A stretch of 64,000 nt of DNA from an uncultured Actinomycetes bacterium (GTDB taxonomy: Bacteria > Actinomycetota > UBA4738 > HRBIN12), in contig CAWGUD010000041.1 in NCBI GenBank assembly GCA_963825685.1, forward strand, positions 13,809 to 77,808. Reading direction: 5' to 3'. Both the position numbers and the translations under genes were made by a program. Of this stretch, positions 6,976-55,970 are shown piece by piece. A model generated the notes under the pieces. It saw only the letters and a program-made list of their open reading frames with translations. It searched no databases and was not told where the DNA came from. The stretch's first letter is position 1. Every line of letters begins with the position of its first letter.

Positions 6976-6987
6976 GGCCCGCTCCCC

Positions 6988-14275: not shown

Positions 14276-15181
14276 GCCGACGGTCCGCGATCGCCTCTCG
14301 CAGGCGGACCGCTCACCACGATCGACCCGGGCACCGCGGCCGCCAGCGTGTCGGCATGGCCGAGGTGACGGGCGAGCGCGGCCACCGTCGGACCGCTGCC
14401 GCTCATGAACGCGCCGAGGGCGCCGGCCTCGAGGAACGCGTCGATCGTCCGCTCGACCTCGGGGTGGTGCGCGACGACGCCCGGCTGCAGGTCGTTGAAG
14501 AGCGCGTCTCCGAGCAGCTCGACGTCGCCGATCTCGAGCGCCGCGATCAACACGCCCGGATCGGGCCCGGTGACCGGGGCGTCGTCCCACCACGCGTAGG
14601 CGTCGGCGGCCGACACCCCGAACCCGAAGGGCTTCAGGACCCACCAGATGCTCGCCGCGTGCACGGCGATGAGGCGCTCGCCGCGACCCGACGCGAGCAC
14701 GGGCTCGTCCGCGAGCATCGCCGGCACGTCGGACCCGAGCGCGGCGCCGAGCTCGGCGAGCGCGAACTCGTCGAGACCGCACGACCAGACCTCGTCGACG
14801 GCGAGCAGCGCGGCCGCCGCATCGGCGCTGCCCCCGCCGAGGCCCGCGGCCACCGGGATGCGCTTGTCGAGCCGGAGCGACGACCCCGGGCGACGAGCCG
14901 TCGCGGCCCATCCGCCGGGCGAGCGCCTCCACGGCCCGCCCGGCGAGGTTCTCGCCGGGCACCGTCGAGACGAGGCGCGCGAGCTCCGCGTCCCCCTCGA
15001 CCTCGATCGACACCTCGCCCGGCGCCGCTTCCGTCGCCGTCACGACGTCGTGCAGCGAGATCGGCAGCACCACGGTCTCCAGATCGTGGAAGCCGTCGTC
15101 TCGGCGGTCCATCACGCGCAGGAACACGTTGACCTTCGCGTGGGCCCTGCGCGTCACGGCCCTGGGTGCGAGCGGGCTCAC
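14272..15181 (-). CDS. ispE: 4-diphosphocytidyl-2-C-methyl-D-erythritol kinase (frameshift near 14880)
   Basis: AHAKVNVFL, DGFHDLET, AAGLGGGSADAAA, LGSDVP, MSGSGPT. Confidence 0.93.
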
Positions 15182-18296: not shown

Positions 18297-19840
18297 CTAT
18301 CCGGCCTCGAGTCGGGGGAAGAGCGAGTCTCCCTTGGTCGTCGTCGGTACCCACGGCGAGGCCTCCCCACACCCCTGCGGCCGGAAGTCGCTGGGCGTCG
18401 AGCGGCTCGGCGATGCCGAGCTGAGCCCACAGCGCCTGTGCCGCTCGCGGCATGATCGGCGCGACCGCGACGGCCAGCACGCGCAGGGTCTCCGCGGCGG
18501 CGTAGAGCACGCTCGCGAGCTCGTCGCGGTTCGCCGGGTCCTTCGCGAGCTTCCACGGCTCCTTCTCGACCAGGTAGTGGTTCGCCCGGGCGACGATGTC
18601 CCAGACCGCGACGAGCGCGGGCTGCAGCTGCACGGCGACCATGTGCTCGTCGTAGCGGCGGAGCGCGTCGTCGATCACCGTCGGCAGGTCGCTCTCGGCG
18701 CCCGGCGTCACCGGCTCGGGCACCGCGCCGTCGAAGTTGCTCGCCAGCATCGCGAGCACGCGGCTCGCGAGGTTGCCGAGGCCGTTCGCGAGGTCGGCGT
18801 TGTGGCGCTCGGTCATCGACTCCCACGAGAAGTTGCCGTCCTGGCCGAACGAGATCTCGCGCATGAAGTAGTAGCGGTACGAGTCCGTGCCGAAGTGGTC
18901 GATCAGGTCGAACGGGTGGATGCCCGTGAGCTTCGTCTTCGACATCTTCTCCCCGCCCACGAGCAGGTACCCGTGCGCCCACACCTGGGTCGGCGGCTCG
19001 AGCCCGGCGGCCATCAGCATCGCGGGCCAGTAGACGGCGTGGAAGCGGACGATGTCCTTGCCGATCAGGTGGATGTTCGCCGGCCACTCGCCGCGCGAAC
19101 CGCTCGGGGTCGTTCGCGTAGCCGGCCGCGGTGATGTAGTTCGTGAGCGCGTCGAACCAGACGTAGGTCACGTGCTCCGGGTCCCAGGGGATCGGCACGC
19201 CCCAGTCGAACGTCGTGCGGCTGATCGAGAAGTCCTGGAGCCCTCCCTCGATGAGGCTCAGCACCTCGTTGCGGCGCACGTCGGGCTCGATCGCGGACGG
19301 GTGCGCCGTGTAGTGCTCGAGCAGGCGGTCCGCGTACGCCGAGAGCCGGAAGAAGTAGTTCTCCTCGCGCATCTGTTCGACGGGCCTCCCGTGGATCGGG
19401 CAGTTCCCCTCGATCAGGTCGTCCTCGGTGTAGTAGGCCTCGCACGCGACGCAGTACAGGCCCTCGTACGTGCCCTTGTAGATGTCGTCGCGGCCGTTGT
19501 CGTGCACGGCCTGCAGGATCTTCGCGACCGCCTCGTAGTGGCGCGGCTCGGTCGTGCGGATGTAGTCGTCGTAGCTGATGTCGAGGCGCTGCCAGACCTC
19601 GCGCCAGCGGGGCTCGAGGGAGTCGGTCCACTCGCGCGGCGTGACGCCGTTCTCCTCGGCGGCCCGCGCGACCTTGAGCCCGTGCTCGTCGGTGCCGGTC
19701 AGGTAGCGCACGTCGTCGCCGCGCAGGCGCCGGTAGCGCGCGATGAAGTCGCTCGCGACCTCGGTGTAGGCGTGGCCGATGTGGGGCACGTCGTTCGCGT
19801 AGTAGATCGGCGTGGTGATGAAGAAGACGTCCCGGCCCAT
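18297..19840 (-). CDS. metG: Methionyl-tRNA synthetase (frameshifts near 19090 and 18345)
   Basis: ITTPIYY, HIGH, GTDEHG, C-x2-C, YVWFDAL, KMSK, C-terminal KGDSLFPRLE. Confidence 0.95.
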
Positions 19841-19985
19841 GGTCGGGTCATGATACGGGTTGGGGTTGCTAGTCTGGGCCAGACTAGTGGCGTAGGCTGG
19901 AGCGGGGCGCTGGGCGGCTGGGCCGCCACGACTTCGTCCCGAGTGTGACGAGCGTCACGGAACCGAGGCCGGGGTGGGCGTAGCG

Positions 19986-39902: not shown

Positions 39903-40939
39903 TCCATCCGCGCACCGTGGCCGACGTGGCCGAGGCGCTCGGCACCGCGTCGCGGGACGGCATCAGGGTGCTGGTCGTCGGCGGGCGTCGCCACCTCGAC
40001 AAGGGGAACCCCACCGAGGTCGACGTGGAGATGTGGACCACCCAGCTCGACCAGGTGGTGGCCTACGAGCCGGACGAGATGCTCGTCGTCGTCCAGGCGG
40101 GCATGCGGTGCGGAACCCTCGCGGAGATGCTCGCCGAGCACGGGCAGGAGTGGCCGGCCGACGCCCCGGCCGACGCGACGGTCGGCGGCGTGATCGCGTC
40201 GGGCTCGACGTCGGCGCGGCGCCTGCGCGTCGGCGCGCTGCGCGACACCGTCGTCGAGATGGAGCTCGTCACCGGCGACGGGCGCACCGTGCACAGCGGC
40301 GCCCGCACCGTGAAGAACGTGACCGGCTACGACCTGCACCGCCTGATGACCGGCTCGCTGGGCACCCTGGGCGTGATCACGCAGGTCGCCCTGAAGCTGC
40401 GGCCGCTGCCCGAGCGCCGGCGCACGCTGGTCGCCCCGGGCGACCTCGCGCTCGCGAGGACGATCGCGGCCGAGGTGCCGCTCGTCGCAGGGGTGCTGGG
40501 CACGCAGGACGGCCTGGAGGTGCGGCTCGAGGGCTGGTCGGACGAGATCGAGGAGCTCGCGGCGGCGGTCGTGAGGCTCGCCGGCGACGCGGTCCCGTCG
40601 GACGACGAGGCGACCTTCCCCCGGACCCCGTGGTGGACGTGGCCCGACCGCGGCACGGTCCTCGAGGCCGCCGTCGTGCCCTCGTCGCTTCCAGAGATAC
40701 TTGCGGAGTCAACGATCTACGCCGCGCTCGCGGGCGTCGGCATCGCGTGGGTCGGGGCGGCGGATGCCGACGAGATCGCGGCGGTGCGCCGGCGCGTCGA
40801 GACGATCGGGGGCATCGCACCGGCGGTCCGCGGCCCCGGAGGCCTGGGCGGCACGCTCCCAGTCCCCGCCGTGCACCACCGTCTGAAGGCCTCGTTCGAC
40901 CCCGCGAACGTGCTGGCCCCCGGTCGCATCTGGACGTGA
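39893..40939 (+). CDS. glcE: Glycolate oxidase-type FAD-binding subunit
   Basis: ATVGG, VKNVTGYDL, GSLGTLG, LKASFDP; overlaps glcD. Confidence 0.82.
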   Translation: MDLIHPRTVADVAEALGTASRDGIRVLVVGGRRHLDKGNPTEVDVEMWTTQLDQVVAYEPDEMLVVVQAGMRCGTLAEMLAEHGQEWPADAPADATVGGVIASGSTSARRLRVGALRDTVVEMELVTGDGRTVHSGARTVKNVTGYDLHRLMTGSLGTLGVITQVALKLRPLPERRRTLVAPGDLALARTIAAEVPLVAGVLGTQDGLEVRLEGWSDEIEELAAAVVRLAGDAVPSDDEATFPRTPWWTWPDRGTVLEAAVVPSSLPEILAESTIYAALAGVGIAWVGAADADEIAAVRRRVETIGGIAPAVRGPGGLGGTLPVPAVHHRLKASFDPANVLAPGRIWT

Positions 40940-40996
40940 GGCCCAGGCGCACCTGCTACAACCTCCTCAGGAGCTGAAGCGGAGGGGAACGAGAGC

Positions 40997-41716
40997 GTGG
41001 GTCGTTTCAAGAACGTCGAATGGGAAGCCGTCGCTGGGGTGGCTGCCGCGGTGCTCGCCCTGGTCCTGCATCTCCTGCACGTCGTCGACGAGGGCGTGCT
41101 GCTCTCGGTGATGTTGGTGCTCCTCGCGTTGCTCCTGCTGCGTGGGGTACGGGGAGAGAGCCGGGAGCAACGGGTAGACGACACCCTGCGGACGGTGGCG
41201 ACCGATCTCGCGACGGTGCGCGCCACCCTGACCCCGCCCGACGCGATCCTCGTGGGCCCCCGATCGCTGCGCACCGAGAGCGAGCGGTTCGCGAAGGGGG
41301 CTCGCGGAGACATGACCTGGTTCAACGTCTGCCTGCGGATGTTCGCGCCACAGTCGTTGTTCGACGCGATGCTGCGTCCCGCGATCGAGAATCCCGAGGT
41401 GCGACGGATCCGATTCGTCCTCGACGAGCGCGAGCGCGAGGCCTGGTCCACGCAGGTCCTCCCGAAGATCCAGGCCTGCACGGGGGCCGAGAAGGTCGAC
41501 GAACCGGTGTGGCGTTCCCTGCCCGAGACCGTCTCGTTCATCCTGGCCGGCACGGCCGACGGGTCGACCGAGGCGCACCTGAGCTTCTGGGGTGAGCCGT
41601 TCATGTCGCACTCCACGGGTCACGACATCCCTCGGTACGTCTTCCACGTGCAGGGCCATTCCGAGCTGATCGGCCGTCTCTCCGACGTCGAGCGAGACAC
41701 CGCCGCCGGCGCCTGA
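40997..41716 (+). CDS. Hypothetical protein with 2 N-terminal TMs and a soluble domain
   Basis: GGAGG RBS region; clean 239-aa ORF; no family recognised. Confidence 0.7.
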   Translation: MGRFKNVEWEAVAGVAAAVLALVLHLLHVVDEGVLLSVMLVLLALLLLRGVRGESREQRVDDTLRTVATDLATVRATLTPPDAILVGPRSLRTESERFAKGARGDMTWFNVCLRMFAPQSLFDAMLRPAIENPEVRRIRFVLDEREREAWSTQVLPKIQACTGAEKVDEPVWRSLPETVSFILAGTADGSTEAHLSFWGEPFMSHSTGHDIPRYVFHVQGHSELIGRLSDVERDTAAGA

Positions 41717-41752
41717 CTCGCCCCGAACGGCCGACGTCAGGCATCACATCCC

Positions 41753-41861
41753 AACGGACCGATATGGCCCATTGGTCCCGTCCGAACCGGGACCTCCGGC
41801 AGCACATCGTGCCCCCGAGGAGCGCTACGGTCGCCCCATCAACGGAGTGAACTAGTCCGTT
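41753..41861. promoter_or_regulatory. Two copies of a 21-bp imperfect palindrome (AACGGA-N9-YCCRTT), candidate operator
   Basis: 41753-41773 AACGGACCGATATGGCCCATT and 41841-41861 AACGGAGTGAACTAGTCCGTT upstream of nosZ. Confidence 0.55.
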
Positions 41862-41917
41862 ACCACTCCGTGAGAGGCCGGGCGGATGAGACCCGGCCCG
41901 GAGCAAGGGGGTTCGCG

Positions 41918-44008
41918 ATGGGTGAGGACGGAGAGCGGATCGACAGCGGCGACGAGCACGTCGAGCTGCCGCCCCCCGGCGAACGGCCGATCAAGCGCCG
42001 CGGCCCGGTGGTCTCACGTCGGGCCGCGCTGGGCATGATGGTCGGGGGCGCCGCGGTGGGCGTGGTCGGCGCGCGCGTCGGCTTCGGCTCGTCGAGCGGT
42101 GGCGACCTCAGCGGCATCGCGAACGCGCGCGGCCTCGACGGGGCGCAAGCGGAGGCGGCGCTCAAGACGTACGTGCCCGGCGGCGAGTTCGACGAGTTCT
42201 TCATCATGTCGTCGGGCGGTCACTCGGGGAACGTCTACGTGATCGGGGTGCCGTCGATGCGCATGCTCGAAGGAGATCCCCGTCTTCACGCCGAACGCCT
42301 GGCAGGGCTACGGCTACGGCACCGACCAGGGCGACCTCGTCCTGGCCGAAGGCGCCGACCCCGCGAAGAGCGAGGACCTTCGGTGGGGCGACACGCACCA
42401 CCCGGCGATCTCGGAGACCGACGGCACCTACGACGGCCGCTTCCTCTACATCAACGACCGGGCCAACGGCCGCATCGCGATGGTCGACCTGCGCGACTTC
42501 AAGACGAAGCAGATCCTCGACATCGCGAACCTGCAGACCTCCCACGGCGGGTGCTTCGTCACGCCGAACACCGAGTACGTGCACATCTCGTCGATGACGC
42601 CATGCCCGGTCACCGAGAGCGGGTACGCGCCGCTGTCGCGGTACAAGGAAGACTTCCGCGGGTTCTCGACCTGGCTGCGCATCGACCAGGACACCGGCCG
42701 GTTCGTGATGGACGAGAGCTTCCAGATCGAGCTGCCGCCCTACACGCAGGACCTCGCCGACGCCGGGAAGCTCGCGAGCTTCGGGTTCGGGTTCATCAAC
42801 ACCTACAACACCGAGATGGCCACGGGCGGCAACCTGCACAACGGCCACAGCGACCCCGCCGCATCGCTCGAGGCGGCGGCGACGATGAACGACTACGACC
42901 TGATGAACATCATCGACTGGCAGAAGGCCGAGGAGTTCGTCAGGCCGGCGCCGGGGTGAAGACGCTGAACGGCATGCGGGTGATCCCGCTCGAAGCCGCG
43001 GCGGCCGAGGGCATCCTGCACTTCGCCCCCGAGCCGAGGAACCCGCACGGCGTCGACGTGAGCCCCACCGGCGACTACATCGTCGTCTCCGGCAAGCTCG
43101 ACCCGAACGGCAACGTGTACTCGGCCGAGCGCATCAAGGACGCGATCGCGAACCAGGACTACGACGGCACCGACCCGTTCGGCGTGCCGATCCTGAAGCT
43201 CGACTCGGTGCTCGAAGCCCAGGTCGAGCTCGGCGCCGGGCCCCTGCACTCGCAGTTCGACGACGAGGGCCACGCCTACACGTCGCTCTTCGTCGACACG
43301 GCGATCGCGAAGTGGACGCTGGGGCCCAAGGCTGGGCACGAGGGCGAGGACGCTTTCAAGCTCGTGGAGAAGCTGCCGGTGCAGTACAACATCGGCCACC
43401 TCGTCACGGCCGAGGGCGACACCGTGACGCCCGCCGGGAAGTACATGGTGGCGCTGAACAAGTGGTCGATCGACCGGTTCCCTCCGGTGGGCACACTGCA
43501 CCCGCAGAACTTCCAGCTGATCGACCTCGACTCGCCGCAGCTGACGGTGCTCGCGGACATGCCGATCGGCATGGGCGAGCCGCACTACGTGCAGATGATC
43601 CACCGCGACAAGCTGAAGAGCGTGATCCAGGTGTACGAGCCGGGCACCGACCCGCTCACCTGGACGAGGTCCGAGTTCGCGATCGCCGCAGGCGAGGAAC
43701 GCGTGGAGCGGCAGGGCGACGACCTGCACGTGTACATGAGCGCCCAGCGCTCGCACTTCACCCCCGACGTGGTCGAGGCGAAGCTCGGCGACACGCTCCG
43801 CCTGCACCTGACGAACGTGGAGCAGACACCCGACGCCACGCACGGGTTCGCGATCCCGGCCTACAACATCGAGGCCTCGATCGACCCTGGCGAGGTCGTG
43901 AACATCGACCTGCCGCTCATCAGGGCCGGCACGTTCGGCATGTACTGCTCGGAGTTCTGCTCGGCCCTGCACCTGGAGATGCAGGGCTGGCTCGAGGTGG
44001 CTCCGTGA
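41918..44008 (+). CDS. nosZ: Nitrous oxide reductase, clade II-like (two compensating frameshifts near 42270 and 42945)
   Basis: SGGHSG..IGVPSMR, (shifted) IPVFTP..GYGYG, WGDTHHP, TSHGG, NPHG, GPLH, NIGH, EPHY CuZ histidines; CuA motif THGF..YCSEFCSALHLEM. Confidence 0.95.
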   Translation: MGEDGERIDSGDEHVELPPPGERPIKRRGPVVSRRAALGMMVGGAAVGVVGARVGFGSSSGGDLSGIANARGLDGAQAEAALKTYVPGGEFDEFFIMSSGGHSGNVYVIGVPSMRMLEGDPRLHAERLAGLRLRHRPGRPRPGRRRRPREERGPSVGRHAPPGDLGDRRHLRRPLPLHQRPGQRPHRDGRPARLQDEADPRHREPADLPRRVLRHAEHRVRAHLVDDAMPGHRERVRAAVAVQGRLPRVLDLAAHRPGHRPVRDGRELPDRAAALHAGPRRRREARELRVRVHQHLQHRDGHGRQPAQRPQRPRRIARGGGDDERLRPDEHHRLAEGRGVRQAGAGVKTLNGMRVIPLEAAAAEGILHFAPEPRNPHGVDVSPTGDYIVVSGKLDPNGNVYSAERIKDAIANQDYDGTDPFGVPILKLDSVLEAQVELGAGPLHSQFDDEGHAYTSLFVDTAIAKWTLGPKAGHEGEDAFKLVEKLPVQYNIGHLVTAEGDTVTPAGKYMVALNKWSIDRFPPVGTLHPQNFQLIDLDSPQLTVLADMPIGMGEPHYVQMIHRDKLKSVIQVYEPGTDPLTWTRSEFAIAAGEERVERQGDDLHVYMSAQRSHFTPDVVEAKLGDTLRLHLTNVEQTPDATHGFAIPAYNIEASIDPGEVVNIDLPLIRAGTFGMYCSEFCSALHLEMQGWLEVAP

Positions 44009-44040
44009 CCCGCGACCGACGAGGAAGGAAGGACGGATCG

Positions 44041-44505
44041 ATGAAGGCGAAGTGGATGACGTTGGTGCTGGCGCTGATGCTGGCCGTGACCCTGGCGGCC
44101 TGCGGCGGCGGTGACGACGGTGGAGACGACGGCGCGGCCGACTCGACCACCGAGACCGAGACGGAGACCGATGCCGACGACGGCGGCGGCGCGAGCACCG
44201 AGCTCACGGTGACGGCGCCCGTCGGCGCCTCGAACGACGGGTTCGCCGAGACGACCCTGACCGCGCCGGCGGACACGGCGTTCACGATCACGTTCAACAA
44301 CGAGGACGAGGGCATCCCGCACAACGTCCAGATCTTCGAGGGCGACGACACCTCGGGCACCCCCGTGTTCGCACCCGAAGGGAACGAGCTGATCACCGGA
44401 CCGGACACCGCCGTGTACGAGGTCCCGGCCCTGGCGGCAGGCACCTACACCTACAACTGCCTGTCGCACCCCACCACGATGGTCGGCACGCTCACCGTGG
44501 AGTGA
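44041..44505 (+). CDS. Cupredoxin (type-1 Cu) lipoprotein
   Basis: Lipobox LAAC, acidic linker, PHNV..YNCLSHPTTMVGTL. Confidence 0.88.
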   Translation: MKAKWMTLVLALMLAVTLAACGGGDDGGDDGAADSTTETETETDADDGGGASTELTVTAPVGASNDGFAETTLTAPADTAFTITFNNEDEGIPHNVQIFEGDDTSGTPVFAPEGNELITGPDTAVYEVPALAAGTYTYNCLSHPTTMVGTLTVE

Positions 44506-44539
44506 CGCGAGGCAAGGAGCCCGAGAGGAGGCGACGGGG

Positions 44540-45196
44540 ATGGCGGACGCGAAGGCGACGACCCGCGAGCAGCGCGGCCTGCGGATCGTCCTGGGCCTCG
44601 CGGCCGCCGTCCTCGTCGTCCTCGCGTGGCGACTCCCCGTGTGGGAAGCCCGCCTGACCGCGCCCCAGTACCCGCAGGGGCTCTCGCTCACCGCGAGCGC
44701 GACCGGCGTCACCGGCGACATCGACGAGGTGAACGAGCTCAACCACTACGTCGGGATGCAGGCCTTCGAGACCTCGGACGCGCCCGAGATGGCCTTGTGG
44801 ACGCCGACGATCGTGCTCGCCCTGATCGCCGTGGCCCTGGCCGTCGCGCTCCCCCGTCACCTCGTCGGGCGCCTGGCGAAGATCGCCCTGTGGGCGATCC
44901 CGATCGGCGCGCTGCTCGACGTGCAGTACCGGCTGTACCAGTACGGCCACGGGGTCCAGCACGACGCGCCGATCCGCCTGGAGCCGTTCACCCCGCTCGT
45001 CGTCGGCCCGACGAAGGTGCTGAACTTCACGACCTGGGCCTATCCGGGCCTCGCGATCTGGTGCCTGTTCGGGGCGGCGTTCCTGGTGACGTTCGCACCG
45101 GGGCTCGTGCGCCGCGCGCGCGACCGCTGGCAGCACCGGCCGGTGTACGTCTCCGACGACGAGTTCGAGGCGCTCGAGCGAGCCGGCCGGGTATGA
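44540..45196 (+). CDS. nosB: NosB-like membrane protein of clade II nos clusters
   Basis: P.W...L.APQYP.GL, NELNHYVGM, LYQYGH, FTP..G.TK..NF; about 4 TMs. Confidence 0.8.
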   Translation: MADAKATTREQRGLRIVLGLAAAVLVVLAWRLPVWEARLTAPQYPQGLSLTASATGVTGDIDEVNELNHYVGMQAFETSDAPEMALWTPTIVLALIAVALAVALPRHLVGRLAKIALWAIPIGALLDVQYRLYQYGHGVQHDAPIRLEPFTPLVVGPTKVLNFTTWAYPGLAIWCLFGAAFLVTFAPGLVRRARDRWQHRPVYVSDDEFEALERAGRV

Positions 45197-46717
45197 GGCT
45201 CGCGCGGGCGCTCGCGGCGTCGCTCGTGGTGCTCGCGGCGACGACCTCCCCCGCGTCCGCGCAGGAGACGGATCACTCGGGTCACGACGAGGACGCGCAC
45301 GTCACCACACCCGACGGCATGGTCTCGATGCCCGCCGAGCACCTGCAGGTGATGATCGAGGAGACCCCGCCCGGCGGCACGCTGATCGTGCCGGAGGCCG
45401 TCTACGTCGGCGCGGTCACGATCGATGAACCCGTGACCCTCGAAGGTGAAGGGACATCCCGTGATCGACGGGAACCTCGAGGGCTCGGTCGTGACGATCA
45501 CCGCGCCCGACGTGACGATCCGGGGACTGACGCTGCGGCGCTCGGCGATCGGACCGTTCGACTCCCCGTCGGGCCTCATGCTCGAGCAGGCGGACCGGGC
45601 CACGATCGAGGACGTCACGATCGAGCAGAGCTACATCGGCATCACCGTCCGGCTCTCCGATGGCGTCACGATCGACCGCGTCTCGATCCGCGGTCAGGGC
45701 GTGATCACCGGCGAGGAACACGTCGTCGAGACCGACGACGAAGACGAGCACCGACAGCACGCCGCCGCCGACCAGGGCACGCAGATGCACACCGACGCGC
45801 AGGTCCGAGGTGACGGCATCTGGCTCTGGAACGCGACCGGCGCGATCGTCCGCGACACGACGATCGACGAGGCACGCGACGGCATCTACGTCTCCTACGG
45901 CGCCGGCAACCTCCTCGAACGCGTCCGCATCAGCGACAGCCGGTACGCGGTGCACGACATGTACGCCGAGGACCTCACGGTCCGTGCCAGCGTGCTCGAG
46001 GGGAACCTCTCGGGGCTCGTGCTGATGTACGGCGGTCCGGTGCACGTGACGGACACCACGATCATGGAATCCGGGAGCCCGTCGACCGGCTTCGGCGTGC
46101 TCGTCAAGGACGTCGGCGGCGTGACGGTCCAGGGCAACGTCGTCGCCGACAATCGCGTCGGCGTCCAGGTCGACGACGCCGGTCGCACCGGCGGCGAGCC
46201 GACGCTCGTGCTCGGCAACACGATCGCGATGAACCAGATCGGGCTGCTGCTGATGCCGTCGGCCGACACCGTGGTCGCCGGCAACGGGTTCATCGAGAAC
46301 TCCACGCAGGTGACGATGGGCGGACAGGGCGGCACGCAGGCGATCTGGAGCCGCGACGGGGTCGGCAACTACTGGAGCGACTACGGCGGGTTCGACGCCG
46401 AGGGCGACGGAACGGGCGATCTGGCCTACGTCGAGAGCGGACGGATGAGCGAGCTCCTGGCGTCCGAACCCCTGCTGCTGGCGCTCGCGTCGGGTCCCGC
46501 GTTCAGGCTGCTCTCGTCGGTGGAGAGCAAGTGGTCCCCGTCGGAGCCCCTCGTGCGTGACGATGCCCCGCTCGTCGCCGCACCCGGCCCGGCGCTGCGG
46601 GGCGACGGCCGCGGCGCGCCCGTGCCTCTCTGGCTGCCGGGACTCGCCCTCACCCTCGGATGCGGCTGGCTGCTGCTGCGCGCGCGCAGGCCGCGACGGG
46701 CGGTGTGGGTCCGATGA
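45193..46717 (+). CDS. nosD: NosD N2O reductase maturation protein (frameshift near 45450)
   Basis: Signal peptide; beta-helix RGDGIWLW, RDGIY, RYAVH.MY, GNYWSDY.GFD..GDG.GD; C-terminal TM. Confidence 0.9.
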
Positions 46718-47413
46718 CCGCCCCCTTCCTCGAGGTCGCGGGTCTCACCAAGGTCTACCGCGGCGGGTGGGGTCTGCACGACGTCTCCCTCTCGCTGCCC
46801 GCCGGCGTGATCGCCGCGCTCGGCGGCCCCAACGGCAGCGGGAAGTCCACGCTGCTGCGCTGCCTCGCCGGGCTCGCCCGGCACGAGGGCGAGGCGCGGT
46901 TGCTCGGAGAGCGGCTCGGGTCCGAACCGGCCGTGCGCGAGCGGGTGGGGTTCCTCGCACAGACCGTCGACCCTTCCCGAGCAGGCCACGATCGGCGAGG
47001 TGATCGACCTCTTCGCGCGCCTGCGCGACGCGGACCCGCGACGGATCCCGCTGCCGCCCGGATTCGTCCGGCCCGACGACGATCTGATCGGCGAGCTCTC
47101 GGGTGGCCAGCGGCACCGCGTGGCGCTCGCGGTCGCGCTGCTCGGTTCGCCGGTGCTGCTGTTGCTCGACGAGCCGGTCGCGAACCTCGACGAGGAGGGC
47201 CGCGAGGCCTTCTGGGACGTGCTCGGCACGCTGCGCGACCGCGACGGCGTGACCGCGATCGTGTCGAGCCCCTCGCCGTCGGAGCTGCGTGACGTCGCCG
47301 ACGTCGGGCTCTACCTCGACGACGGCCGCCTCGTGCGCGAGGAAGACTTCAGCGGCCGGAGCGCGACGATCGTGCATCCCTTCGGCCGCGACGACGCGGA
47401 GGCGTGCTCGTGA
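46714..47413 (+). CDS. nosF: ABC transporter ATP-binding protein NosF (frameshift near 46975)
   Basis: [20 protein letters not shown]; between nosD and nosY. Confidence 0.82.
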
Positions 47414-48240
47414 GCGCCCGGCCCGTCTCCGTGATCGCGGCATGGGAGTACCGGACCGCCGTGCGTGCGAAGTGGGTGCTCACGATGGCCGTCGTGTTCG
47501 GCCTGCTCTGCGTGATGGTCACGCTGCTCGCGTTCCGCACGGTCCGCGAGCTGGGGCTCTCGGGCATCGGCCCCGCCTCGGCGACGCTCGTGAACCTCGG
47601 GGTGCTGCTGCCGTCGCTGATGGGGCTGTTGCTCGGCGCCGGCTCGCTCGTGGGCGCGCGTGAGCAGGGCATGCTCGCGATGGTGTGCGCCCAACCGCTC
47701 CGCCGCTCCCAGGTGGCGACGGGCGCGTTCCTCGGGCTCACCGCGTCGCTCTGCACGACGCTCGGCATCGGGTTCGGGGTCGCGATGCTGATCATCGCCG
47801 GCGTCGCCACGACGAGCGACGTGCCGGCCCTCGTGACGCTGATCGTCGCGACGCTCGGCGTCGGGGCGGCGAGCGTGGCGATCGGCGTGGCGATCAGCTC
47901 CCTCGTCTCGAGCCGCGTGCAGGCGGTCTCGATCGCGGTCGGCCTGTGGATCGTGCTCTCGCTCGGCGTCGACCTCGCGCTCGCCGCCCTCGCGCCGAGC
48001 GTGCACCTCGGCCCCACCGGGCTGCTCGTCGCGATCCTCGCGAACCCCTTGGAGGCAGGACGCATCCTCGCGCTGCTCGGCACGAACCTCGAGGGCACCG
48101 CCCTCGGGCCGTTCGGCGCGTACCTGATCAGCACGTTCGGCCGATGGGGGACGATCGCCGTGCTCGTCGGGGACCTGGTGGCATGGACGCTGGTGCCGCT
48201 CGGCGTGGCACGATGGGCACTGCCACGCAAGGACCTGTGA
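47410..48240 (+). CDS. nosY: ABC permease NosY
   Basis: Multi-TM; REQGML...[12 protein letters not shown]. Confidence 0.82.
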
Positions 48241-48265
48241 CCTCGACCGCCCGGAGGAGCGCCCG

Positions 48266-48709
48266 ATGCGACTCGCCCGCGAGAGCCGGTACGCGATCGA
48301 AGCCCTGGTCGTGCTCGCCGACGCGCCGCCCGGCGAGATGATGGAGGCCCGCGAGATCGCGGCGCTCGCGCACCTGCCGGCGGCCTTCCTGTCGAAGATC
48401 CTGAGGCTCCTCGCGATCGGTGGCGTGCTCCGGTCGCAGCGGGGCAAGGGGTACGAGCTCGCTCGGCCGCCGGAGCGGATCGCGCTCGGGGACGTGCTGC
48501 GCGCCGTCGAGGGCGACGAGGTGATCTGGGAGACGTGCATCTTCTGGCGCGAGGAGTGCGACACGGAGCACCCGTGCCCGTTGCACTTCCGGTGGACCGA
48601 GCTGAAGCCCGGCATCCAGGACGCGATGGGGTCCGTGACGCTCGCCGACATCGCCCGGCACGGCTTCGAGCCCGACGCGAGGGTCGGCGAACACCGCGAC
48701 GGTCGCTGA
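48266..48709 (+). CDS. Rrf2 family Fe-S transcriptional regulator
   Basis: YAIEAL, FLSKIL, S.RGKGY.LAR; C-x6-C-x5-C-x2-H (CIFWREECDTEHPCPLH). Confidence 0.92.
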   Translation: MRLARESRYAIEALVVLADAPPGEMMEAREIAALAHLPAAFLSKILRLLAIGGVLRSQRGKGYELARPPERIALGDVLRAVEGDEVIWETCIFWREECDTEHPCPLHFRWTELKPGIQDAMGSVTLADIARHGFEPDARVGEHRDGR

Positions 48710-48786
48710 CCACGGCCGTGTGGGAAGGTGCGAGCACCACCCCGGTGTTGGACGCTGTCGAGACCGGACACGAGGAGACGAACACG

Positions 48787-49179
48787 ATGCTGAACGATGC
48801 CGACCGAGCGATGCTCGACGCACCGAACTTCGCGAGCCTCGCCACGACGATGCCCGACGGCTCGCCGCAGGCGTCCGTCGTCTGGATCGACCGAGACGAC
48901 GACTCGATCCTGGTGAACACGGCCGAGGGACGCACGAAGACCGAGAACATGCGCCGCGACCCGCGTGTCGCGATCTGCCTGTTCGACCGGAACGACCCGT
49001 ACCGCCAGCTGATGGTGCGCGGTCACGTCACCGGCTACGAACACGACGGCGCCGACGCGCACATCGACTTCCTCGCGAAGAAGTACACGGGCGCCGACGT
49101 CTACGGGGACCATCGTCCCGACCAGCAGCGGGTGATCGTGCGCATCGAGGTCGACGGCGTCGCCCGCATGGGGTACTAA
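48787..49179 (+). CDS. PPOX-class F420-dependent oxidoreductase-like protein
   Basis: ATTMPDGSPQAS.VW, GR.K..N.RRDPRV, LAKKY.G. Confidence 0.88.
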   Translation: MLNDADRAMLDAPNFASLATTMPDGSPQASVVWIDRDDDSILVNTAEGRTKTENMRRDPRVAICLFDRNDPYRQLMVRGHVTGYEHDGADAHIDFLAKKYTGADVYGDHRPDQQRVIVRIEVDGVARMGY

Positions 49180-49188
49180 GTCTTCAGA

Positions 49189-50170
49189 CTACTTGAGAAG
49201 ATGCCGATCGATCTCGCGGAGGAGGTCGAACTTCGCGACGGCCGGAAGCTGCTCGTCACGGCATCGGCGAACGCTGCACCTATCGAGCGAAGCCATTCGC
49301 GAGGACGCGTACTCCATGCCACTCTCGTGTAGCGGATCGTCCATGTTCACCGACACCAGCATGCCTTCCTGATACATCGCGCGCAACGGATGTATCTGGA
49401 GTCCTTGTCGATCAGCTCGGACGACGGACACGGTGAACGCGTCTCGTTCCTCTCAGCTCGCGGATCGTGTCGAGGTCGTCATCGCCGAGAGTCCGTGGTC
49501 GATGCGCTTCGGCACCATCGACAGCGCGATCCGAAGGTCGTCGGCGATCGCTCGTCGTGGCTCGCGAGCATCGGAGCCGATGTGCTTGGGACCGGCGTCC
49601 TCGGCGCAGTCGCTGAGTCGCCCGCGAGCTTCGTCGACATCGGTCCCGGGCGATGCTCGTGGTGCCGCGGCGACGCTCCTCGCCATCGTGGCGTCGATCG
49701 GCGCCCGATCGTACGCGAACCGGTCGCAAGTCACGATCAGCACCCCGACCAGCTGAAGTCGGGGCGAGCGTCCGAGTCCATCACGGCGGATGGTCGCGCG
49801 TTGTGCGGCGTGCTGGCGGCGGTCGCGGAGCCGTGCCCGTCACCGTCGAGGATCGATCGTACGCGAGTCGGTACCAGTCATCCGAGGGTTCGCGAGCGAC
49901 GCGTCTGCCCCTGCCGGCAATCGTCGAGGTAGTCGTTCAGGCTCTCGTAGTCGACGAGCTGCGCCGCGGCGCTCGTCGCAGGATGGTCGCCGTCCGCAAT
50001 CGACGATCGCCTTGCCTGCGAGCTACGTTCACGGTCGAGGACGAAGCGCCCTCGGCATGCAGTACAGCTCGAGCTCGGGATCCGGCAACGAGATCCGGCA
50101 GCGAATCGCGTCTGCATCATGCCCCGACGCGAGCTCGCGGCACCTACGGATCCTGTATTGTCGCATCCGC
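49189..50170 (-). pseudogene. Heavily degraded adenosine deaminase-family gene
   Basis: Scattered fragments in order: LPDPELELY (cf. LPKAELH), YESLNDYLD, KRIDHG, HPLRAMYQEGMLVSVNMDDP. Confidence 0.6.
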
Positions 50171-51402
50171 GTCGGACGATGAACGCTCCGACCGATCCGG
50201 CAGGTCAACCGACGCACATGGCGTGCGATCGCTCACCGTCGCGCCGAGTCGCTCCCCCGCGGCTTCCAGGGTCTCGACGCGCTTGCAGAACGCGAACCGC
50301 AGCAGGTGCGCCCCGTCGGCGGGGTCGGAGACGAACGACGAGCCGGGCACGGTCGCCACGCCGACGTGCTCCACGAGATGGCGAGCGGTCGCGACGTCGT
50401 CACCGAGGCCGAGGTGGGAGCAGTCGGCCATCACGTAGTAGGCGCCCTCGGGCGGCGACGCCACCTCGAAGCCGCTCTCGGCGAGCACCCGAAGCATCAC
50501 GTCACGCCGTTCCGCGTAGTCGGCGCGCATCCGCTCGAAGTAGCTCGGCGGCAGCTGCAGGGCGGTGATGCCCGCGACCTGCAGCGGGGCCGCCGCCGCC
50601 ACGGTGAGGAAGTCGTGCACGGGCCGGATGCCCGCCATCAACGGCGCGGACGCGATCGCCCACCCCACGCGCCACCCCGTGACCGAGTACGTCTTCGAGA
50701 GCGCGCTGATCGTGATCGTGCGCTCCGCCATGCCGGGGAGCGTCGCGATCGGCACGTGCTCGGCGTCGTCGTACGTGATGTGCTCGTAGATCTCGTCGGT
50801 GATCGCGATCGCGTCGTGCTCGACGCAGAGCTCGGCGATCGCGGCGAGCTCCTCACGCGTGAACACCTTGCCGGTCGGGTTGTTCGGCGTGTTGATCACG
50901 ATCGCGCGGGTGCGCGGTCCGAACGCGGCGCGCAGCTCGGCCTCGTCGAACGTCCAGTCGGGCGGGCGCAGCGACACGAGCCTCGGCACCGCGCCGGCGA
51001 TGATCGAGTCGGGCCCGTAGTTCTCGTAGAACGGCTCGAACACGACGACCTCGTCGCCGGGGTCGAGCACGCCGAGCATCGACGCGATCATCGCCTCGGT
51101 CGATCCGCACGTGACGCAGATCTCGGTCTCGGGGTCGACCGTCATGCCGTGGTCGCGCAGCGTACGCGGCCGCGATCGCCTCGCGGAAGCGCCGGCACGC
51201 CCCACGTGATCGGGTACTGGTTGTGGTCCTCGGCGATCGCACGCGCGGCGGCGTCCTTCAGCTCCTGTGGCGCCGGGAAGTCGGGGAACCCCTGCCCGAG
51301 GTTGATCGCGCCGTGCTGGTTCGCCAGCCGCGTCATGTCGCGGATCACCGACTCCGTGAACGACGACGCCTTCGCCGACGCGTGCAGCCTCGAGTCGTTC
51401 AT
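50144..51402 (-). CDS. Class I/II PLP aminotransferase (YbdL/kynurenine aminotransferase-like; frameshift near 51160-51200; stop uncertain)
   Basis: AINLGQGFPDF, NQY, NTPNNPTG, DEIYEH, SKTYSVTGWRVG, RFAFCK. Confidence 0.9.
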
Positions 51403-51450
51403 GAGCGAGCAGCCTATCCTCGGGGCAGTCGACCGGCAGGAGGGATCGCG

Positions 51451-52386: not shown

Positions 52387-53197
52387 TCACAGGCGGCTCC
52401 GCAGGCCCCACAGCTCGGGGAAGCAGCGCTTGTCGAGGGTCGAGCGCAGGTAGCCCACGCCGCTCGACCCGCCGGTGCCGCGCTTGGCGCCGATCTCGCG
52501 TTCCACCATCAGCACGTGCAGGTAGCGCCACTGCGCGAGCGCCTCGTCGTGGTCGAGGAGGCCCTCGCTCACGGCGAACACCTCGCCCTGCTCGCGCGCC
52601 ATCGCGACGAGCGACGTCGCGCGCGCCCTCGGCGTCGTCGTCGGGCATCGGATAGCCGTGCGTGCGCATCATGGTCAGGAACCCGTCCCAGAGCGTGGGC
52701 TCGGCGAGTCGCCGCGCGAGGCGTTCTCGCTCCTCGGACTCCGCGGCGAGGTCGTCGAGGAACCGCTCGTCCTTCAGGCCGCTCACGAACTCGAGCTCGC
52801 GGAACTGCGCGGACTGGAAGCCGCTCGCGGGCGTGAGCACCGCCCGGAACTCGAGGAAGTCCTGCGGGGTCATCGTCTGCAGCACCTGGATGTGCTCGAT
52901 CAGCACGCGCTCGATCGCCTGCACCCGCACGAGCAGGTGACGCGCGCGCTCGGGGCGGTCGGCGACCATCGCGTCGCGCGCGGCTTCCAGCTCGAAGAGC
53001 ACCTGCTTGAACCAGAGCTCGTAGGCCTGGTGCACGACGATGAAGAGCAGCTCGTCGTGGACCGGCGGATCCGACCGCAGCTGCTGCAGCGAGAGCAGCT
53101 CGGGGATCTTCAGGTACGAGCCGTACGTGAGCAGTCCCTGCTCGGCCTGCTCGGTGAGGCGCCCGAACCGTCGCTCCTGCCGCTCCCCCTCGGTCAT
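52387..53197 (-). CDS. kynA: Tryptophan 2,3-dioxygenase (frameshift near 52620)
   Basis: YGSYL, HDELLFIVVHQAYELWFK, PASGFQS.QFR, W...H..MVER.IG.K.GTGGSSG. Confidence 0.95.
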
Positions 53198-53259
53198 GGC
53201 GGCACGGTAGGCAGGCGACGCACCTCGGTCAAACCACCCGGGCGTGTGAGGATGGGCGC

Positions 53260-54561
53260 GTGACCGATCGCGCCGCCGAGCCGACGCCGCTGGGGACCGA
53301 GATGCCCGAGGGGGTGCGGTTCGTGGGACGCGAGGGCGTCGTCACGCCGAACTGGCTCGGCGACGACCACCCGGCCGATGCCGATCTCGATGCGTGCGTG
53401 GCGTGCGGCCTGTGCCTGCCGCACTGCCCCACCTACCGGCTCACCGGCGAGGAGACGGCGTCGCCGCGGGGGCGCATCGCGGCGATGCGGGCGGTCGCGG
53501 ACGGCCTCGCCGAGGTCGACGACACGTTCGCGGCGTTCATGGATCGATGCCTCGTCTGTCGCGCGTGCGAGGACGTCTGCCCGTCGCACGTGCCGTTCGG
53601 CCGCATGATGGAAGCACGCGCGCACCGAGCTGGAGCCGCGCCGCAGCGCCGGCGCCCGGCTGGTGCGATGGCTCGGGCTCGACGTCGTGCTGCCGCATCC
53701 GTCGTTGATCAGGGCCGCCGCCGTGCTGCAGCCGATCGCCCGACCGCTGATGCCGCGCCGCATGCGAGCACTCGTGCCGCGCCGGACGGCGCCGCTGCGA
53801 CGGCTGCCGGCGCTCACCGAACCACCGGCGGGCGTCGAGGTGCGCGGCACGGTCGCGCTGCTCGCGGGCTGCGTGCAGGACCGGTGGTTCCACGACGTGA
53901 ACCTCGCCACGATCCGGGTGCTCGCGCGCACGGGGTGGCGCGTGGCGGTGCCGCGGGACCAGCGGTGCTGCGGCGCCCTGCAGGCGCACAACGGGAGGCT
54001 CGAGACGGCACGCCGGCTCGCCCGCCGCAACGCGCGGGCGTTCTCGGGCGTCGATCACGTGATCGCGAACGCGGCCGGCTGCGGCGCGCACATGCAGACG
54101 TACGGCGAGCTCGCGGACGGCGCAGAGCTGCCCGTGCGCGACGTGATCGCGTTCCTGCACGACGAGGGCCTGGGCACGGTCGAGCTCGGGCCGGCCGGCG
54201 TCGAGCGCGTCGCCTACCACGATGCGTGTCACGCGCTGCGCGCGCAGGGGATCCACGCCCAGCCGCGGGCGCTGCTGGGCGCGATCCCGGACCTGCAGGT
54301 CGTCGAGATCCCCCAGGGCGACCGATGCTGCGGCGCCGCCGGCCTCTACAACGTCACGGAACCCGAGCTCGCCGAACGGCTCCAACGCGACAAGGCCGAG
54401 GCCGTCCGGTCGACGGGGGCGCGGGTGATCGCGAGCGCGAACCCCGGCTGCACGATGCAGCTCCGTGCGGGTCTCGCGTCGCTCGGGGTCGACGCCCGCG
54501 TCGTGCATCCCGATCGAGCTGCTCGACGTCGCGATCGAGGCCGGCCGACCCAGCGCCTTAG
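53260..54561 (+). CDS. glcF: Glycolate oxidase Fe-S subunit (frameshifts near 53620 and 54510; end approximate)
   Basis: CVACGLCLPHCPTY, SPRGRI, CLVCRACEDVCPS, CCG motifs, HDACH, ANPGC. Confidence 0.85.
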   Translation: MTDRAAEPTPLGTEMPEGVRFVGREGVVTPNWLGDDHPADADLDACVACGLCLPHCPTYRLTGEETASPRGRIAAMRAVADGLAEVDDTFAAFMDRCLVCRACEDVCPSHVPFGRMMEARAHRAGAAPQRRRPAGAMARARRRAAASVVDQGRRRAAADRPTADAAPHASTRAAPDGAAATAAGAHRTTGGRRGARHGRAARGLRAGPVVPRREPRHDPGARAHGVARGGAAGPAVLRRPAGAQREARDGTPARPPQRAGVLGRRSRDRERGRLRRAHADVRRARGRRRAARARRDRVPARRGPGHGRARAGRRRARRLPRCVSRAARAGDPRPAAGAAGRDPGPAGRRDPPGRPMLRRRRPLQRHGTRARRTAPTRQGRGRPVDGGAGDREREPRLHDAAPCGSRVARGRRPRRASRSSCSTSRSRPADPAP

Positions 54562-55970
54562 CGTCCGGCCCTGAACGACAGTCCGAGCCGCCGAAGGGCC
54601 GGTGACACCGGCTCCGGGCCCAGCACACCTTCGAGCCATGCGGCGGCGAGTCCTCCGGTCGACCCGGCATCGCTCGCGGCCAGCGACCCCGCCGTCGCGG
54701 ACCACGCTCCCGCGATCGACGCCCGGGCGATGACCCCGTCGACGTCGATGCCCGTCATCGGTTCCTCGCCCGCATCGGCCCCGGGGAGGATCATCACCGC
54801 GTTCACCACGGATCGCTCGCCCCCGGGGTCGGAGGGCGAGTTCACGATGCCCCTGCCCTTGATCCACATCGCCGAGCTGCCGCCGCCGTCGAGGTTCACG
54901 GCCTCGACGGCTCCGAGGTCGAGGAAGGTGCGGGCGAACCGCCGCAGGGTCATGCCGACCGACCGTCGCGACCGGCCGTCGACGACGACGAGCAGCAGCC
55001 TGCCGTCGCTCGTGACCCCGATGCCCGTTCGTGGATTGCGCCGGCAGAACGACGACCTGCACCTCGGAGCAACGGACCTACCGTCGTCGACGAGCTGGGG
55101 CATGCCGCCGATCGTGTCGAGCACTCGCGGCCACCCGACCGACCACGAGAGGCGGACGCGATCGCCGGGTTGCATCGCCTCGATCGCGTCGGCCCCTTCC
55201 CCCCAGCGCCTCGACGCGAGGACGACCCCCCGAGATCCCACCCGCCTGGGCGGGGAGACGCATCGGACGACGTCGACCGTGTAGCGCCTCGACACCCCTG
55301 CCTCGAGCGCGGCCCACCCCAACGGTCCGTCCGCATCGAGCCGCGCCGCGCACCCGCTGTCGGGAGGCCGGTGGATGCCTCCCCCGTACCGCGTGAACGC
55401 CGCGATCCCATCCTCAGCGGGACGATGTGAGTTCCACCCGGAGACCGGGAAGCCGACGTTCCCCGTCTCGAGCAGCCCGTCCACGACCGGATGTGGTGGA
55501 CCGACGAACGCCGTGGTCTCGTCGTGGGCGACCGCGAAGCTCGTCCCGTTCTGCACGCCCCGGCCCATCAGGGTCCCGTCCATCAGGAACGGGTGGATCG
55601 GGTACCCCTCCAGGAGCCCGAAGTCCCCGTTGATCGCGATCAACGCACCGTGCGCCCGGCCGATCACGCTCGGCCGTGAGAACGAGCCCATCGTCGGGCC
55701 GCCGGCGCCGAGGTCGACGGTCGTCGCCTGCAGCGGATCGAGACGTACGACGTGCACGACCACCGGTCCCGTTCGGTCCGTGATGCGCTCGTAGGTGAGC
55801 CCGGCGCCGAGCCGCACGGGCGAGGAAGCGGGGCGCGACGCGGCGCGCGCCGGCACGACCGTCGTCACCGTGAGCACCGACGTCATCACGATCGCCGCCG
55901 CCGTACTCACGGCCGCACCTGCCCTCGAGGCTCCGCCCATGGTCCGGACATCGGAGCGCGGTGCCGTCAT
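54558..55970 (-). CDS. Secreted phosphodiester glycosidase (NAGPA/DUF2233) family protein
   Basis: AINGDF, NPRTGIG, VDGR, AVNLDGGGSS. Confidence 0.85.
   Translation of the reverse strand: MTAPRSDVRTMGGASRAGAAVSTAAAIVMTSVLTVTTVVPARAASRPASSPVRLGAGLTYERITDRTGPVVVHVVRLDPLQATTVDLGAGGPTMGSFSRPSVIGRAHGALIAINGDFGLLEGYPIHPFLMDGTLMGRGVQNGTSFAVAHDETTAFVGPPHPVVDGLLETGNVGFPVSGWNSHRPAEDGIAAFTRYGGGIHRPPDSGCAARLDADGPLGWAALEAGVSRRYTVDVVRCVSPPRRVGSRGVVLASRRWGEGADAIEAMQPGDRVRLSWSVGWPRVLDTIGGMPQLVDDGRSVAPRCRSSFCRRNPRTGIGVTSDGRLLLVVVDGRSRRSVGMTLRRFARTFLDLGAVEAVNLDGGGSSAMWIKGRGIVNSPSDPGGERSVVNAVMILPGADAGEEPMTGIDVDGVIARASIAGAWSATAGSLAASDAGSTGGLAAAWLEGVLGPEPVSPALRRLGLSFRAGR

Follow-up and report, generated by a model that had tools for sequence, protein, structure and literature searches.

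Introduction

NosZ, the nitrous oxide (N2O) reductase, is the only known biological sink of N2O. Actinomycetota rank among the most abundant bacteria of soils, yet almost all of their counted role is that of N2O producers. The closest described systems belong to two clades. In clade I, represented by Pseudomonas stutzeri and Paracoccus denitrificans, small soluble or anchored copper proteins (pseudoazurin) can donate electrons. Clade II systems with NosB ('atypical', Sec-type) are represented by Wolinella succinogenes and by Bacteroidota, Gemmatimonadota, and Bacillota. The accessible text of one paper gives NosB four or six transmembrane helices and describes nosL as often absent in Bacillota (PMC11388526); that of another reports a subgroup within clade II NosZ, in Chloroflexota, that combines a twin-arginine (Tat) signal with nosB (PMC11409646). 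Here we analyzed a nos cluster located at 41918–48709 (+ strand) in a 64,000-nt stretch of DNA (hereafter the window) from an uncultured Actinomycetes bacterium (assembly GCA_963825685.1, contig CAWGUD010000041.1, positions 13,809–77,808; G000:C41:13809–77808 in our numbering). The bin, G000, comprises 3.61 Mb in 44 contigs with 70% G+C and is 91.8% complete and 7.95% contaminated. We are confident that the locus is a genuine clade II nos operon, carried chromosomally by an uncultured soil bacterium of the phylum Actinomycetota, and that its five frameshifts are assembly errors and not decay. Judged from its genes, the cluster is very probably functional and would reduce N2O.

The nos cluster and its NosZ

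nosZ (41918–44008, +) is read in three pieces (41918–42265, 42270–42941, and 42944–44005), with one surplus base near 42269 and one base missing near 42942. The pieces matched positions 1–36, 38–239, and 244–578 of the 578-position TIGR04246 profile (named 'Sec-dependent', clade II) contiguously and reached 685 bits when summed (42 + 225.2 + 418.3). The cut-off of this model is 625 bits, and each single frameshifted piece scores below it. Summed scores were 359 bits with the Tat/clade I model TIGR04244 and 174 bits with the clade III L-NosZ model. Intact orthologs in five relatives (G001, G006, G022, G032, and G038) scored 723–769 bits with TIGR04246, above the cut-off; the ortholog of the congener G022 (723 bits) is intact and shares 99% amino acid identity with the window NosZ. 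The motifs WGDTHHP, TSHGG, NPHG, GPLHS, IGHL, EPHY, DATHGF, and CSEFCSALHLEM were all found in the window pieces. Following the structural literature on which residue binds which copper, we take these to hold the CuZ histidines, seven in number, and the ligands of CuA (His, two Cys, His, and Met). The same His/Cys motifs align with their counterparts in a solved NosZ (PDB 9f8x_A). NosZ has no C-terminal haem domain. A mechanically called open reading frame (ORF) of 712 aa was also considered as nosZ and was rejected, since its middle third is off-frame and is open only owing to the 70% G+C.

An earlier note, made from the sequence alone, had placed this NosZ in clade II. This placement is supported by the hidden Markov model (HMM) scores, in which TIGR04246 outscores both the clade I and the clade III models, as well as by the NosB-like gene after nosZ and the lack of a NosR-like gene in the cluster. 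The assignment rests on the HMM scores because the NosZ tree ('quick' method, midpoint-rooted within clade II) covers clade II only, without clade I sequences; five rows were left out of the tree, three as duplicates (L023, L025, and L120) and two as fragments (L059 and L067). No NosR-like gene was found among the genes at 38.4–51.2 kb of the window, nosR not having been searched for genome-wide.

Downstream of nosZ, the cluster encodes a lipoprotein cupredoxin (44041–44505; PF00127, E = 4.6e-7; PF13473, E = 5.8e-8), a NosB-like integral membrane protein of 218 aa (44540–45196), the periplasmic beta-helix maturation protein NosD (45193–46717; PF05048, 121 bits; TIGR04247, 260 bits; extra base near 45449), the ABC ATPase NosF (46714–47412; extra base near 46969), the ABC-2 type permease NosY (47404–48240; PF12679 [ABC2_membrane_2], 66 bits, profile positions 3–283 of 283), and an Rrf2-family transcription regulator (48266–48709; TIGR00738, 93.5 bits against a cut-off of 73.3), all on the + strand. 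NosF matches ABC_tran in two pieces, which cover profile positions 1–67 and 101–137. NosD has an N-terminal signal and a C-terminal hydrophobic anchor, and its ortholog in G022 is an intact ORF of 500 aa. ATGA start/stop overlaps join nosB to nosD and nosD to nosF. The co-directional, overlapping gene set listed in the earlier note (nosZ, cupredoxin, nosB-like, nosD, nosF, nosY, and Rrf2) was recovered in full and at the same coordinates. Its description of the cluster as apparently complete holds for nosD, nosF, and nosY and is generous for the full accessory set, as nosL was not found in the genome.

The NosB-like protein has three to four hydrophobic segments (Kyte–Doolittle) and matches no Pfam or NCBIfam family. 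Of 80 clade II loci, 72 contain a homolog by tblastn, and the other eight end soon past nosZ. The order nosZ–nosB–nosD was kept in 69 of the 70 loci holding all three genes. The nearest Atlas clusters of the protein likewise carry no Pfam family, and their phyla are also represented among the nosZ-bearing loci. The designation NosB-like follows from its conserved position and its cross-phylum homologs.

Frameshifts in the cluster

The cluster was compared with that of G022 (93.8% identity over window positions 41751–49197). Relative to G022, the window has single-base insertions at 42269, 45449, 46969, and 48740 and a single-base deletion at 42942, and the remaining coding indels in the cluster are all multiples of three. 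Every gene of the cluster is intact in G022. The two compensating nosZ frameshifts reported in the earlier note are present in the assembly, as the TIGR04246 pieces also indicate (+1 near 42269 and −1 near 42942). Beyond these, single-base frameshifts were found in nosD (~45449), in nosF (~46969), and in an ORF with a pyridoxamine-5′-phosphate oxidase (PNPOx) fold that follows the Rrf2 gene (~48740).

Housekeeping genes of the same window are split in the same manner, with contiguous profile matches in metG (4–247 and 253–481), ispE (8–91 and 98–284), glmU (2–155 and 158–450), and prs (8–124 and 128–324). A codon-usage HMM called 710 stop-less same-strand frame switches across the bin, or about 2 per 10 kb, which is an underestimate since it caught only three of the five nos sites. 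In the flanks, comparison with G022 gave nine indels that are not multiples of three in ~9.8 kb (36786, 36950, 37447, 37797, 51159, 51189, 52624, 53612, and 54513), about one per kb, and the cluster is not enriched in indels relative to these flanks. The ratios of nonsynonymous to synonymous substitution rates (dN/dS) against G022 were 0.045 for nosZ, 0.044 for nosY, 0.12 for nosF, 0.17 for nosD, 0.10 for the Rrf2 gene, and 0.22 for the cupredoxin gene; selection on the nos genes is purifying. Logan contigs of four runs (X1–X4) on soil or rhizosphere, each from a different study, represent relatives of at least 90% likeness in other samples; their coverage gaps and depth were given no weight. 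These contigs carried frame-restoring indels at four of the five sites among the rows listed: one base was omitted at 42269/42272 in X1, X2, and X3, one was added at 42940 in X2 and X3, and one was omitted in X1 and X4 at both 46969 and 48740. Intact forms circulate in other soils, and they come from relatives rather than from the DNA of this strain itself.

The frameshifts are most likely assembly errors, as judged from relatives, housekeeping genes, and contigs of other samples: metG, ispE, glmU, and prs are split alike, frame switches occur genome-wide, the flanks hold indels, selection is purifying, and soil contigs restore the frame. The alternative is that the cluster is a recently inactivated, decaying remnant, with real frameshifts in nosZ, nosD, and nosF, in a locus that is being lost from the genus. 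We think this very unlikely. It would account for five frameshifts within 7.4 kb, for a co-binned allele on contig C3 that lacks nosZ to nosY (described below), and for the presence of nosZ in no more than 4 of the 24 further genomes sampled in the genus. However, essential single-copy genes (metG, ispE, glmU, and prs) are broken likewise, the flanks have about one indel per kb, and frame-restored forms occur in independent soil contigs. There are also no premature stops or surplus amino acid changes, with NosZ 99% identical to that of G022 at a dN/dS of 0.045. The possibility raised in the earlier note that the nosZ frameshifts are real is not borne out by the relatives and the housekeeping genes. 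A programmed or otherwise genuine pair of compensating shifts in nosZ was rejected as well, since single-base indels of this kind also disrupt housekeeping genes and the flanks. For long-read bins that are prone to indels, the case cautions against a biological reading of compensating frameshifts. Frameshifted genes of the window were located at 5997–8392, 14317–15178, 18337–19849, 50234–51408, 52390–53212, and 53215–54568, and comprise prs, glmU, ispE, metG, an aminotransferase gene, and two further downstream genes.

Host and borders of the cluster

Five genes for WhiB (PF02467) scored above the cut-off in G000; among the control genomes, only Corynebacterium matches this family. The nearest named records with the same cluster are an Actinomycetota bacterium or an uncultured Actinomycetes bacterium, with NosZ identities of 97, 89, 80, and 71%. 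The WhiB genes and these named relatives support the assignment of the host to Actinomycetota, in agreement with the earlier note. Genes for FAD-linked oxidases lie upstream of the cluster and an aminotransferase gene downstream, and the same neighbors flank it in G022 (on a 1.8-Mb contig), G018, and G006. The contig is therefore not chimeric at the borders of the cluster, an outcome against which the earlier note had cautioned.

That the cluster is foreign to its actinobacterial host, through a chimeric or mis-binned contig or because it was acquired very recently from Chloroflexota or a different phylum, seems to us scarcely credible. Such an origin could be argued from the bin contamination of 7.95% with 0.79 Mb in duplicated blocks, from Limnocylindria NosZ lying inside the same 28-row subclade of the tree, and from a contig-unique stretch of 814 bp directly upstream. 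Against it stand the shared flanking genes in G022, G018, and G006, the G+C content of the cluster (68–73%), which matches that of the remainder of the window, and the duplicated contig C3, which comes from the same genus (92–97% identical). In the tree, moreover, NosZ sequences from the host's order, family, and genus fall into nested clades with good support. The Limnocylindria (Chloroflexota) NosZ nest inside the same subclade as the actinobacterial NosZ.

The 814-bp stretch (40937–41750) lies between the FAD-oxidase gene and the nosZ promoter and is absent in G022, G018, and G006. It has no second copy in the bin and contains a coding-like frame of 245 aa (ORF 40979–41713) without a Pfam family. 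On the other side of the cluster, the PNPOx-like ORF (48703–49196, +; extra base near 48740) has an ortholog in G022 that matches PF01243 (E = 8e-17); its conservation is limited to the genus, and its membership of the system is uncertain. The ORF at 48720–49193 was considered as a hidden nosL and was ruled out by the PNPOx fold.

A second allele and the denitrification genotype

Contig C3 (~27.7–39.7 kb) carries an allelic copy of the window at 37–55 kb, 92–97% identical to C41. Its order is a FAD oxidoreductase gene and nirK, followed directly by the Rrf2 gene and the PNPOx-like ORF. It lacks nosZ to nosY, apart from some 40 nt at the end of nosY. Since duplicated contig blocks of at least 1.5 kb such as this one make up ~0.79 Mb of the bin, the bin is a composite of two related strains, and the nos-bearing strain should not be assumed to possess the nirK of C3.

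The nirK-like gene (G000:C3:35368–36807; L102, 1330–2769) encodes 479 aa and is the sole good nirK-like gene in the bin. Its product scored 181 bits with TIGR02376, under the cut-off of 296, and has an N-terminal anchor, two multicopper-oxidase domains, a Pro/Glu/Ser linker, and a C-terminal cupredoxin domain. In G018 and G006, nirK and nos lie side by side, with nirK divergent from the adjoining nosZ, and G022, G001, and G032 have nos only. The genome-wide search for nirK, nirS, and nor proposed in the earlier note returned this gene on C3 only; neither nirS nor narG was found in the bin. No nor gene was found there either, where two COX1-family genes pass the Pfam cut-off and PF00115 matches of 24 and 21 bits were left unexamined. 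By its genotype, the nos-bearing strain would be a non-denitrifying N2O consumer.

Several observations weigh against a genuine and working clade II operon with artefactual frameshifts. Five frameshifts in 7.4 kb exceed the genome-wide rate detected by the codon-usage HMM. Some Logan contigs, those of X4 at 42269, of X1 and X4 at 42940, and of X2 and X3 at 48740, carry no frame-restoring change, and the rows listed include none for 45449. The deletion on C3 shows that the nos locus is dispensable. The NosB-like protein differs from that of G022 (L016, 10099–10758) at 56 of 214 residues, with a synonymous divergence (dS) of 0.43 and a dN/dS of 0.5, compared with a dS of 0.11 and 99% protein identity for nosZ; this high divergence points to a replaced allele or to relaxed constraint. 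No NosL (PF05573) was detected in G000, which is 92% complete, or in five nos-bearing relatives. The window NosZ does not bear the Sec-type signal expected of clade II, as judged by motif, and its signal appears Tat-like instead. Finally, at 92% completeness and 8% contamination, missing genes may be merely unassembled.

Predicted export signal of NosZ and proposed electron transfer

A twin-arginine motif, SRRAALGM, followed by a hydrophobic stretch, was found at the N-terminus of NosZ. (S/T)RRAALGM is conserved in all NosZ orthologs of the same order and in one Ilumatobacteraceae record, and TatC is present in the genome. Other actinobacterial NosZ in the same subclade have a homologous hydrophobic GARxGFG segment without RR.

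The cupredoxin has a lipobox (LAAC) and the type-1 copper ligand pattern H...C..H..M (His-Cys-His-Met), and it matches plastocyanin/azurin- and amicyanin-type models. Of the 85 loci holding both nosZ and nosB, 26 have a cupredoxin gene between the two (3 of the 26 are duplicate rows), and all 26 fall in a single NosZ subclade of 28 rows with 99* support, which consists of Actinomycetota and Limnocylindria. The cluster contains no gene for cytochrome c, NosGH, NosC1/C2, or NosR. We propose, from these features, that the cupredoxin may be the electron donor to CuA of NosZ.

Alternatively, the cupredoxin could be a copper-delivery factor that replaces NosL, with electrons reaching NosZ some other way, for instance via the dihaem cytochrome of the bc complex. 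Its slot is the place of a NosL-like ORF (judged by eye) in the Tat-type Dehalococcoidia loci, NosL was not found in any of the six nos-bearing genomes examined, and the cupredoxin is a predicted lipoprotein, as NosL is. However, it has the full His-Cys-His-Met pattern of blue-copper electron carriers along with the plastocyanin/azurin- and amicyanin-type matches, and sites of the copper chaperone type differ in appearance from this pattern. The nirK-like enzyme also ends in a fused, homologous cupredoxin domain, which in that position is usually read as an electron carrier. We consider copper delivery improbable and retain the electron-donor role as our proposal.

An ORF between nosZ and nosB was also noticed in the Tat-type loci of Dehalococcoidia and relatives (L041, L043, L045, L047, L050, L052–L054, and L056–L058). 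The C-terminal motif of this Chloroflexota ORF looks NosL-like by eye, and the ORF occupies the same slot as the actinobacterial cupredoxin.

Regulator and candidate operator

The Rrf2 protein has three clustered cysteines (C-x7-C-x5-C). It scored 32 bits with the NsrR model PRK11014, whose cut-off is 182, and only the Rrf2 superfamily model TIGR00738 was passed. It is best called an Rrf2-family regulator with no finer name, and its cysteines make it a candidate Fe-S sensor controlling nos and nirK. Its gene remains linked to nirK on the nos-less allele C3.

Two candidate elements precede nosZ. A perfect 6-9-6 palindrome, AACGGA-N9-TCCGTT (41841–41861, +), lies ~57 nt 5′ of the nosZ ATG and is kept with at most one mismatch 5′ of nosZ in G022, G001, G006, G018, L022, and L024. 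The 3.6-Mb bin contains exactly two sites of the consensus AAYGGA-N9-TCCRTT, where base composition predicts 0.15, and the second site (G000:C3:35367–35387) lies upstream of the nirK-like gene. Because its only two copies lie 5′ of nosZ and of nirK and it is conserved in relatives, the palindrome is a candidate shared operator for the linked Rrf2 protein. Further upstream, the inverted repeat GGTCCCG-N7-CGGGACC (41774–41794, +), a candidate regulatory element or 5′ hairpin, is conserved in six of six aligned relatives. GGTCCCG-N5-9-CGGGACC has one other exact match in the genome, within a coding stretch of C20, and a near-copy with one arm mismatch is kept beside nirK on C3.

Distribution and proposed function

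Sampling of other genomes detected clade II nosZ in 4 of 24 within the genus (one of the four, that of G018, is also in pieces), in 2 of 16 from further families of the order, and, by an even draw, in 9 of 300 across the phylum. The rarity in the phylum noted earlier is borne out by the last count, which agrees with the accessible text of PMC12569097, where 98% of Actinomycetota genomes carrying denitrification genes are initiators and 1% are terminators. Twenty public soil or rhizosphere runs of 11 studies hold 28–39% of the 31-mers of window positions 41700–49300, and none holds 50% or more. Shares of 0.28–0.39 indicate that close relatives, rather than this strain itself, are widespread in soils.

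Three further Actinomycetota loci (L114, L115, and L116, of G269, G086, and G167) carry clade II NosZ of a different subclade with lipoprotein-type signals and no cupredoxin, and these group with an Anaerolineales record near a Planctomycetota clade. As their NosZ belong to a separate subclade, nosZ has entered Actinomycetota more than once.

In the mechanism that we propose, NosZ would be exported by Tat via the conserved SRRAALGM motif and would probably be held on the outside of the membrane by its N-terminal hydrophobic segment. NosDFY and NosB would mature the copper-sulfide CuZ site without a NosL chaperone, and the lipid-anchored type-1 cupredoxin would carry electrons from the respiratory chain to CuA. 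Transcription would be controlled by the Rrf2 protein through the AAYGGA-N9-TCCRTT palindrome. In a wider reading, which we hold to be less likely than not, soil Actinomycetota and Limnocylindria would share a distinct clade II system with anchored blue-copper wiring and no NosL, with Tat export in this order, and nirK and nos would form one variable locus of the genus under the same Rrf2-linked palindromic operator. If so, co-occurring strains with nirK only, nos only, or both would represent a strain-level split of denitrification steps, and nos-only strains would be net N2O sinks in soils and rhizospheres.

The occurrence of these genes is already visible in public genomes and surveys. No report of an actinobacterial nos cluster, a clade II cupredoxin, or Tat-type clade II NosZ in Actinomycetota was found in the literature, although subscription reviews and supplementary tables may hold one. 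The layout that is Tat-type, cupredoxin-linked, and NosL-less, together with the allelic variation of nirK and nos, is modestly new. The earlier note had called the locus an under-described N2O sink with its own layout; the layout is new to that modest degree, but it is common to the whole NosZ subclade and not to this genome alone.

That a soil genus keeps a nos cluster which is conserved and under purifying selection points to an uncounted guild of N2O consumers. Schemes that assign NosZ to clades from its signal peptide would misplace such proteins. Testable hypotheses on how NosZ is assembled and fed in monoderms arise from the cupredoxin link, from the lack of NosL, and from the presence–absence alleles of nirK and nos.

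Comparison with known systems

The clade II NosB systems (TIGR04246) resemble the window cluster in the best-matching model and the copper-ligand motifs. They also share the NosB-like gene after nosZ, followed by nosD, nosF, and nosY, the lack of nosR, and a non-denitrifier genotype. The window differs from them by a twin-arginine motif instead of a Sec signal and by a lipoprotein cupredoxin in place of NosGH, NosC1/C2, and cytochrome c. Further differences are a genome without detected nosL and a NosZ without the C-terminal haem domain.

With the clade I systems (TIGR04244; PDB 3sbp and 1fwx), the window would share NosDFY-dependent maturation, Tat-dependent export (predicted by motif), and a small copper protein as possible electron donor. 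It differs in the model score (359 against 685 bits) and in a cluster that has a NosB-like gene and lacks nosR, nosX, and nosL.

The Tat-plus-nosB subgroup of Chloroflexota, as given in the accessible text of PMC11409646, is alike in its clade II sequence, twin-arginine signal, and adjacent nosB, and Chloroflexota clades are the nearest non-actinobacterial neighbors of the window NosZ in the tree. However, the twin-arginine region of Dehalococcoidia reads TRRELI, in contrast to SRRAALGM in the window NosZ, and the two are not sisters: between them lie actinobacterial NosZ without RR and with the GARxGFG segment. Where the Dehalococcoidia loci have an ORF that looks NosL-like by eye, the lineage of the window has the cupredoxin.

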